64,000 nt of DNA. Origin: Escherichia coli. GTDB lineage: Bacteria; Pseudomonadota; Gammaproteobacteria; Enterobacterales; Enterobacteriaceae. Below are positions 22,246 through 23,729 of this stretch, piece by piece. The notes beneath the pieces were generated by a model. It was not told where the DNA came from. It saw only the letters and a program-made list of their open reading frames with translations, and searched no databases. Positions within the stretch are counted from its first letter, which is position 1; each line of letters starts with the position of its first letter. The stretch lies in the NCBI RefSeq assembly GCF_022846255.1, contig NZ_AP025682.1; one strand, written 5' to 3'. Made by a program: the position numbers and the translations under genes.

Positions 22246-22382
22246 TCCTCTGATTTACAAAACACGCTAATTCGTCTCCCATAAACCATGACGATTAAGA
22301 TTTATACATAATGCGCTACATTGAGGAATTCCCTGAATGTGACGCAAATCACTTCAAAGAGTGAGCAACAGTCAGTATCATC

Positions 22383-22418
22383 ATGTGAGTTAAACCCTCG
22401 CCGCCTGACGGTGAGGGT
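22383..22418 (+). terminator. Stem-loop with T-tract between rna and rnk
   Basis: ccctcgccgcc-tgac-ggtgaggg followed by ttttcttttgg. Confidence 0.5.
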
Positions 22419-22474
22419 TTTCTTTTGGGTATGTTTATCTGCGACACTCGCAGTACCGACGACATGGAGTAAAA

Positions 22475-22885
22475 ATGTCCAGACCAACTATCATCATTAA
22501 CGACCTTGATGCCGAACGCATCGATATTCTGCTGGAGCAACCCGCCTATGCTGGTTTGCCAATCGCCGACGCGTTAAACGCAGAGTTGGATCGCGCCCAA
22601 ATGTGTTCGCCAGAAGAGATGCCACACGACGTGGTGACAATGAACAGCCGGGTTAAATTCCGCAATCTTAGCGATGGCGAAGTGCGTGTGCGCACGCTGG
22701 TGTATCCGGCAAAAATGACCGACAGCAATACTCAGCTTTCCGTTATGGCTCCGGTAGGTGCCGCACTGCTGGGGCTGCGCGTTGGCGATTCCATTCACTG
22801 GGAACTTCCGGGCGGCGTTGCAACCCACCTTGAAGTGCTGGAACTCGAATACCAGCCAGAAGCTGCTGGCGACTACCTGCTTTAA
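22475..22885 (+). CDS. rnk: Regulator of nucleoside diphosphate kinase Rnk (GreA/GreB-like C-terminal fold)
   Basis: 136 aa; recognised Rnk sequence. Confidence 0.9.
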
Positions 22886-23027
22886 TCCCATCTGCACAAG
22901 CGATAACTCGCTTTGCCCAGAGGATGCACTCGCATCCTCTTTCCGCTCAAATATCAACCAGATTTATCATTTTGCGCTTAAGCGCAGCATTCTAATCTGA
23001 ACTGGTTATTCATCTGCGGAACCTCAT

Positions 23028-23117
23028 ATGAGCGAAGCTCTCGGTATCACTGCATTTTATATATTCATAGCCGCAATTATTGTTGCTGCAGTGCTATACC
23101 TTGAACAACGCTGGTAG
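23028..23117 (+). CDS. 29-aa hydrophobic small protein (single predicted TM helix), possibly the small protein YldA
   Basis: ATG ORF MSEALGITAFYIFIAAIIVAAVLYLEQRW in the rnk-uspG gap; mostly hydrophobic core with charged ends; no strong SD; identification as YldA rests on memory of a 29-aa small protein in this neighbourhood. Confidence 0.4.
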   Translation: MSEALGITAFYIFIAAIIVAAVLYLEQRW

Positions 23118-23240
23118 CGCCTGGTTTTATTTATTTTCCAGCTCAATAGCAAATTCAGATCAAATCAGCCTCGCAAATCATAGATTCATAACCAATAATG
23201 TGCTGTTATGTATACATGCAAAAACAAGGAGAGAATGCTT

Positions 23241-23669
23241 ATGTACAAAACAATCATCATGCCAGTGGATGTTTTCGAAATGGAATTGAGCGACAAAGCG
23301 ATTCGCCACGCTGAATTCCTCGCCCAGGATGACGGAGTTATTCATCTACTTCACGTACTACCGGGGTCAGCCAGCCTGAGCCTGCACCGTTTTGCCGCTG
23401 ATGTACGTCGTTTTGAAGAGCATCTGCAACATGAAGCAGAAGAACGTTTGCAAACGATGGTCAGCCACTTTACCATCGATCCTTCCCGCATTAAGCAACA
23501 TGTCCGTTTTGGTAGTGTGCGGGATGAAGTTAACGAGTTAGCGAAAGAACTTGATGCAGATGTAGTAGTGATTGGTTCGCGTAACCCATCAATTTCAACT
23601 CATCTGTTGGGTTCTAACGCCTCGAGCGTAATCCGCCACGCCAATTTGCCGGTGCTGGTTGTGCGTTAA
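23241..23669 (+). CDS. uspG: Universal stress protein G
   Basis: 142 aa from [13 protein letters not shown]; Usp fold with C-terminal G-x-x-S nucleotide-binding motif ([14 protein letters not shown]). Confidence 0.92.
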
Positions 23670-23687
23670 TTGCCAGAATAAGTATCC

Positions 23688-23721
23688 CGCCCTGCCCGGA
23701 GCCATCCCTGCAGGGCTTTTT
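23688..23721 (+). terminator. Intrinsic terminator after uspG
   Basis: ccctgcccggagccatccctgcaggg stem-loop followed by ttttt. Confidence 0.65.
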
Positions 23722-23729
23722 AATGCAAT

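Follow-up and report, generated by a model that had tools for sequence, protein, structure and literature searches.

The 29-codon open reading frame (ORF) between rnk and uspG in the window, the 64-kb stretch of Escherichia coli DNA that was analysed here, is almost certainly the yldA gene, which is already known and annotated. It very probably yields a translated membrane peptide, and it belongs to an allele other than the one found in K-12. Profile comparisons indicate that YldA is a shortened paralogue of YoaI, and a YoaI/YldA superfamily is proposed here. The account as a whole, in which a real yldA gene makes a membrane peptide that would bind a larger inner-membrane protein in the manner of YoaI, is reasonably likely. 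The features used in the argument are listed below.

22475-22885, plus strand: rnk, the same-strand 5' neighbour in every yldA-bearing genome.
22919-22940, plus strand: rnk 3' hairpin, AGAGGATGC-ACTC-GCATCCTCT followed only by TTCC; a perfect 9-bp inverted repeat, 87 nt 5' of yldA.
22943-23222, no strand assigned: haplotype-specific segment, 280 bp in place of 1,615 bp that hold K-12-type yldA and ybdR; bounded by the blastn blocks against O157 (locus L002, 2564-4178).
23018-23021, plus strand: weak Shine-Dalgarno-like GGAA, 7 nt before the ATG, with an anti-SD duplex of -3.5 kcal/mol.
23028-23117, plus strand: yldA coding sequence, 29 codons and TAG, non-K-12 allele; from the ORF listing, RefSeq, NCBIfam and pN/pS.
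23037-23102, plus strand: predicted single transmembrane helix, codons 4-25, ALGITAFYIFIAAIIVAAVLYL; from hydropathy, and aligned with the YoaI transmembrane segment.
23073-23114, plus strand: conserved C-terminal block, codons 16-29, with A16, V19, A21, V22, L23, L25, E26 and the tail QRW; from conserved columns.
23241-23669, plus strand: uspG, the 3' neighbour in the window haplotype, with its ATG at 23241 and a 123-nt spacer after yldA.

An earlier note on this DNA had described the ORF, and its coordinates, translation and rnk/uspG flanks all match the ORF listing exactly. The product is MSEALGITAFYIFIAAIIVAAVLYLEQRW, with an ATG start and a TAG stop. An in-frame TGA lies 30 nt 5' of the ATG and no start codon falls between the two, so the ATG at 23028 is the earliest possible start. 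In the wider gene order, rna lies 5' of rnk and ahpF lies 3' of uspG.

The rnk-uspG spacer was compared by megablast with 5,426 complete E. coli genomes. Strain D8 carries a 100%-identical copy of it, in which RefSeq names the ORF yldA and its product "small membrane protein YldA" (WP_001287361.1). The NCBIfam YldA equivalog model, NF041476, matches residues 1-29 of the peptide over model positions 1-29 with 59 bits against a cutoff of 45 (E 3.2e-16). The Pfam family PF23689, 'YldA-like', scores the window peptide at 22.9 bits (E 9e-5), short of its gathering score of 27, and scores the K-12 allele at 73.6 and an Enterobacter allele at 33.1. This family appears to be centred on K-12-type sequences; the low score is a matter of sensitivity and does not contradict membership. 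The identical peptide is named YldA in records from E. coli, E. albertii and E. marmotae, and near-identical peptides occur in unclassified Escherichia. The earlier note had compared the ORF with a 29-aa YldA near rnk in K-12, and RefSeq, NF041476 and the literature (PMC6001520) bear it out, with the addition that the sequence here is a divergent, non-K-12 allele. A full-text literature search with the window peptide returned zero papers, and no published function of YldA was found in the literature search.

A 29-codon ORF is by itself not beyond chance, since 56 ORFs of at least 20 aa overlap this 3.3-kb region, and the case for a gene therefore rests on comparative evidence. For this comparison, 80 loci were gathered around the Rnk protein from one-genome-per-species collections. 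A YldA-like ORF is found in 34 of them, spread over about eight genera: Escherichia, part of Citrobacter, most Enterobacter, Lelliottia, Leclercia, Pseudenterobacter, Phytobacter and one Kosakonia. Adding the window and O157 Sakai (L002) brings the set to 36 coding sequences, and every one of the 36 has 29 codons, an ATG start and the strand of rnk. The start lies 132-150 nt past rnk in 33 of the 36, and in the window it lies 146 nt past the last rnk codon. The flanking spacers are rich in indels, unlike the ORF with its invariant length.

The substitutions follow the reading frame. Over the 36 distinct coding sequences, the mean pN/pS is 0.385 in the yldA frame and 1.25 and 1.43 in the shifted frames, and the entropies at codon positions 1, 2 and 3 are 0.68, 0.50 and 1.23. 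The window and E. albertii copies differ by 7 synonymous and 0 nonsynonymous changes, a pattern with a chance of about 5e-5 when 20 of the 84 sites are taken as synonymous. The ORF is 92% identical to that of E. albertii, and the adjoining spacers are 86% and 83% identical. These comparisons point to clear purifying selection on yldA at the protein level. The check on codon-level and nucleotide conservation that the earlier note had suggested gave a strong and frame-specific signal.

There is next to no chance that the ORF is an accident of an A+T-rich spacer, or that a conserved RNA element rather than a coding sequence is being kept here. Short ORFs are indeed as plentiful as the count above shows, and the spacer folds somewhat better than its shuffles (z = -2.7). 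Set against this are the three-base periodicity of the substitutions with the frame-specific pN/pS, the length fixed at 29 codons amid indel-filled flanks, and the K-12 orthologue, which is a detected protein. An inverted repeat within the ORF (23045-23054 / 23087-23096) also has no evident counterpart in the K-12-type gene, as judged by eye in the codon alignment.

The ORF could also be read as a regulatory uORF that couples read-through from rnk to uspG and makes a peptide with no function of its own. It does lie on the same strand, 123 nt 5' of uspG, with no recognisable terminator between. This reading is hardly credible: the amino acids themselves are under purifying selection (pN/pS 0.39) and six residues are invariant, and the ORF is conserved equally where a convergent ybdR parts yldA from uspG, an arrangement seen in many Enterobacter species and two thirds of E. 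coli.

The gene is missing at the other 46 of the 80 rnk loci, and its absence there was confirmed by running the family HMM on six-frame translations. The lineages that lack it include Salmonella, the C. freundii complex, E. hormaechei and Kluyvera. This distribution implies repeated loss of yldA in other genera, as against near-universal retention in E. coli, and yldA, absent from so many rnk loci, is dispensable in many lineages. Among the rnk loci that lack yldA are L021, L022, L033, L034, L040 and L046. Several Enterobacter species without yldA do have ybdR, and the rnk-ybdR spacer there is about 90-115 nt.

Expression is best documented for the K-12 allele. VanOrsdel et al. (2018), in the first report of YldA, saw a chromosomal YldA-SPA fusion in K-12 by immunoblot (PMC6001520). 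The K-12 protein has 29 aa, MAEAFYILIGFLIMAAIIVMAVLYLENHS, is encoded between ybdR and rnk, and accumulates from its own chromosomal locus in cells growing in rich medium (PMC6001520). Translation in the window would most likely start at the ATG at 23028, aided by the weak but positionally conserved GGAA. The anti-SD duplex energy of K-12 yldA is -4.2 kcal/mol, and those of rnk and uspG are -5.9 and -8.5. An SD-like site ending at -4 to -9 is present in all 36 yldA sequences, averaging -5.0 where control positions average -1.0 +/- 2.5, and at least 90% of the orthologues share the G at -9 (23019). The earlier note was right that the Shine-Dalgarno sequence is weak, but its use of this weakness to doubt expression does not stand, because the K-12 allele is similarly weak and its protein is nevertheless detected, and because the SD-like patch is kept in place.

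The transcription unit can only be deduced, because scans for a consensus sigma-70 promoter or an intrinsic terminator came up empty on both strands over 22800-23300. The upstream alignment, inspected by eye, held no convincing -35/-10 pair or Pho box. The rnk 3' hairpin is terminator-like but has a poor U-tract, and its short run of T fails the terminator consensus. Most likely, RNA polymerase would read through this U-poor hairpin into yldA or would start at a non-consensus promoter within the 87-nt spacer, and the transcript may run on into uspG. In K-12, RNA-seq data place ybdR-yldA among the convergent overlapping transcript pairs of the ExcludonFinder list (PMC12288877); this overlap is impossible in the window haplotype because ybdR is absent.

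Three further elements were seen around the upstream region. The stem of the rnk hairpin is invariant from Escherichia to Phytobacter in its sequence and not merely in its pairing, while the loop varies. The known cis-regulatory element rnk_leader (RF01771) gives a full-length Rfam match at 22321-22429, scoring 124.9 bits where the gathering score is 50. The spacer 5' of yldA contains a perfect 12-bp palindrome, GCGCTTAAGCGC, at 22974-22985; even the nearest Escherichia loci (L003, L004) do not keep it, so it is probably incidental.

YldA would be a 29-residue peptide that crosses the inner membrane with one helix. The mean Kyte-Doolittle hydropathy over residues 4-25 is 2.5, and this value and the RefSeq product name both agree with the single-helix small membrane protein that the earlier note had proposed. 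The short acidic N-terminus (M-S-E) is predicted to be periplasmic and the four-residue tail, E-Q-R-W, to be cytoplasmic; this topology prediction is the weaker because the K-12 tail has no Lys or Arg. The residues M1, E3, A21, V22, L25 and E26 are invariant in the family, and the window peptide has all six. The codon of E26 is at 23103-23105. I7, A16, V19 and L23 are near-invariant, and the family consensus is MxExLxITLxFLIxxAIIVxAVLYLERHW. The conserved residues do not gather significantly on one face of the helix (100-degree moment, P = 0.41), so the argument for a single interaction face was dropped.

The same architecture was what led the earlier note to think of type I toxins, membrane-damaging hydrophobic peptides that are silenced by an antisense RNA. 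YldA shares with IbsC, ShoB, LdrD and TisB a short, hydrophobic, single-helix product encoded between genes, and its size and helix are like those of the IbsC, ShoB and Ldr-type toxins (reviewed in PMC12648545). The weak Shine-Dalgarno sequence could mean restrained translation, and overexpression of the homologue YoaI delays growth (PMC11429745). Even so, a toxin is highly unlikely, and the signals of an antisense RNA that it calls for did not appear. At E up to 1, neither strand of the ORF or its immediate surroundings matches an Rfam family, and this covers the known type I antitoxin RNAs but would miss a novel RNA that has no model; the Rfam scan around yldA returned only the rnk leader and sub-threshold noise. 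The minus strand has no promoter-like or terminator-like sites. Unlike the toxin genes, yldA has no cognate antisense or adjacent sRNA match and no repeat copies, being single-copy within the window; its inheritance is vertical and syntenic, with a place after rnk that is stable in about eight genera and is neither patchy nor mobile. The K-12 protein accumulates at its native locus and is tolerated at its native level (PMC6001520), and the invariant charged residues E3 and E26 with the conserved tail speak for a specific interaction and not for generic membrane insertion.

The relation to YoaI gives YldA a characterised relative. YoaI is a 34-aa inner-membrane protein under PhoB regulation; it binds the sensor kinase EnvZ and activates it (Vellappan et al., PMC11429745). 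Its Glu31 is invariant, lies in the four-residue cytoplasmic tail, and is needed for both binding and activation of EnvZ (PMC11429745). The NCBIfam YoaI model, NF041475, is matched by all 34 of 34 YldA sequences, with a best E of 1.2e-8, and it is the only other family matched in this way. In these matches, YldA residue p always pairs with YoaI residue p+5, and the NCBIfam, MAFFT and hhalign alignments share this register. The pairs are E3/E8, I7/I12, V22/V27 and E26/E31, and all three alignments set the invariant E26 of YldA opposite E31 of YoaI.

Further comparisons agree with this result. A YldA alignment compared by hhalign with 15 YoaI orthologues gave a probability of 97.2% (E 4.3e-11) over 28 columns. 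An HMM made from YoaI alone scored the real YldA sequences at 23.1 bits (range 14.5-31.9), composition-preserving shuffles at 0.2 +/- 2.0 (max 12.4), shuffles of the TM core only at 2.0 +/- 3.1, and eight unrelated small hydrophobic E. coli proteins at no more than 5.2 bits; the YoaI alignment was built from matches to a mixed YldA and YoaI profile and may favour YldA-like YoaI, a bias that the NCBIfam result does not have. An exhaustive profile search of 1.84 billion representatives found only 64 relatives, and among these are bridging forms such as MNDPAFFDTLCITAVFLVIASALVMSVLYLERRW, which sit at the yoaI position (yeaL/yeaK) and have a YldA-type tail. Two NCBI assemblies supply such cases at loci L084 (4001-4138) and L085 (4001-4183): the positional yoaI orthologue, flanked by yeaL/DUF441 and yeaK/tRNA_edit, has the MND N-terminus of YoaI but ends in a YLERRW tail of the YldA type, and it bears the precomputed tag PF23689:YldA.

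The two proteins each have a single TM helix and a four-residue tail. They differ in that YldA is missing the first five residues of YoaI (MNDQM) and has Ala where YoaI (E. coli b1788) has its invariant Ser26, and in their loci, which are yeaL/yeaK for yoaI and rnk for yldA. The window peptide scores 30 bits against the YoaI equivalog cutoff of 45 (NF041475), which makes it a relative and not YoaI itself, and YoaI in turn matches the YldA model only weakly (E 0.035). In K-12, each of the two genes abuts a convergent gene. The stops of yoaI (L083, 6079-6183) and yeaK, and those of yldA (L002, 2644-2733) and ybdR, are 0-3 nt apart in K-12-type genomes, and both pairs are in the ExcludonFinder convergent-overlap list (PMC12288877). 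The link between YldA and YoaI does not appear in Pfam or NCBIfam naming, and none was found in the literature search.

By analogy with YoaI, and because Glu26 aligns with the EnvZ-binding Glu31, YldA is modelled here as a binding peptide. Its cytoplasm-proximal block, A16...V19.AVL.LE26, would bind a larger inner-membrane protein, possibly a histidine kinase, and the juxtamembrane Glu26 would make an electrostatic contact as Glu31 of YoaI does with EnvZ. The chances that YldA would act through binding a larger membrane protein are about even. That the partner would be a sensor kinase is a tentative suggestion, and that it would be EnvZ itself is improbable. Four observations weaken the YoaI-like model: the change of Ser26 to Ala, the weak reciprocal match, the conservation that keeps to no single helical face, and the repeated loss of the gene.

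A serious alternative to the kinase idea, and a possible one if still rather doubtful, is that YldA, as an accessory subunit, assists or stabilises a membrane transporter or a respiratory complex, as AcrZ, KdpF, CydX and MgtS do. Such subunits have a similar architecture, with one helix and very short tails, and conservation all round the cytoplasmic half of the helix fits a peptide buried in a complex. No kinase gene lies nearby either, the neighbours being rnk, uspG and, in K-12, ybdR. On the other side, none of the 36 loci has a gene for a transporter or an oxidase linked to yldA, and YoaI, the one homologue that has been characterised, targets a sensor kinase by way of a residue that is invariant in YldA. 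If the kinase model is carried further, YldA as a truncated YoaI paralogue may be a second small-protein input to two-component signalling, through contact of Glu26 with EnvZ or another histidine kinase, and the alleles might differ in affinity or specificity for the partner; this extension is unlikely as a whole. The window and K-12 alleles, ...ITAFYIFIAAIIVAAVLYLEQRW and ...ILIGFLIMAAIIVMAVLYLENHS respectively, are unlike both in the tail and in the half of the helix nearer the periplasm.

The comparison of genomes also showed that E. coli has two types of yldA, each with its own surroundings. Identity between the window and O157 Sakai is 98% as far as 22942, a little beyond the rnk hairpin, and 93% from 23223 onwards. 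The segment of K-12 and O157 that is replaced here holds K-12-type yldA and the convergent ybdR, a gene for a Zn-dependent alcohol dehydrogenase. In the window, yldA lies directly between rnk and uspG because this haplotype is without ybdR. The window arrangement is present in 1,816 complete E. coli genomes and the K-12 arrangement in 3,605, and one or the other yldA allele is found in 5,421 of the 5,422 complete genomes that have rnk.

K-12 YldA, a b4734-class small protein, and its window counterpart both have 29 aa and are encoded on the same strand about 145 nt after rnk. They share the invariant residues and the core AAIIV-AVLYLE, and RefSeq names both of them YldA. They differ in the tail, which is NHS in K-12 and QRW in the window, and the window haplotype, being without ybdR, has no convergent overlap partner. 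Synthesis has been demonstrated for the K-12 allele, whereas for the window allele we infer it from purifying selection. The two peptides are identical at 15 of 29 residues (about 52%). The coding sequences have 55-57% nucleotide identity, and their synonymous sites are saturated (pS 0.80).

Window-type yldA forms a group, at 71-77% nucleotide identity, with the alleles of E. albertii, of other Escherichia and of one Citrobacter set, and K-12-type yldA is nearer to the alleles of C. amalonaticus and C. koseri (68-70%). On these distances the two types are old allelic lineages and not the result of recent divergence. The grouping of each allele with different Citrobacter alleles suggests an old polymorphism or an exchange between genera. 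The window allele is the usual one in E. albertii, in E. marmotae and in roughly a third of E. coli.

Two observations concern the DNA around these alleles. UspG is identical to that of O157 at 140 of 143 residues, and the DNA at 23223-23722 is 91.6% identical and mosaic, with patches of 81-87% at 23223-23322 and 23523-23722 between stretches of 97-99%. This mosaic around uspG looks like recombination tracts that reach past the ybdR indel. At locus L086 (2703-2906), a 67-aa protein, P0031, has codons 1-19 of window-type yldA joined to K-12-type yldA, both its ORF and the sequence upstream of it. It was rejected as a true recombinant of both alleles; it occurs on one 4-kb metagenome scaffold, in which two E. 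coli strains from the same sample were probably assembled into a chimera.

The identification of this ORF matters little in itself, because yldA is already in RefSeq and in the small-protein literature. A by-product of the analysis is that E. coli has two deeply divergent yldA alleles that are tied to the presence or absence of ybdR. Results obtained with K-12 YldA are therefore not automatically valid for about a third of E. coli, for E. albertii or for E. marmotae; they do not transfer directly because the allele differs by about 50%, the locus is without ybdR, and there is no convergent transcript overlap. The homology to YoaI, which includes the glutamate that binds EnvZ, makes the uncharacterised YldA open to a concrete and cheap experiment.
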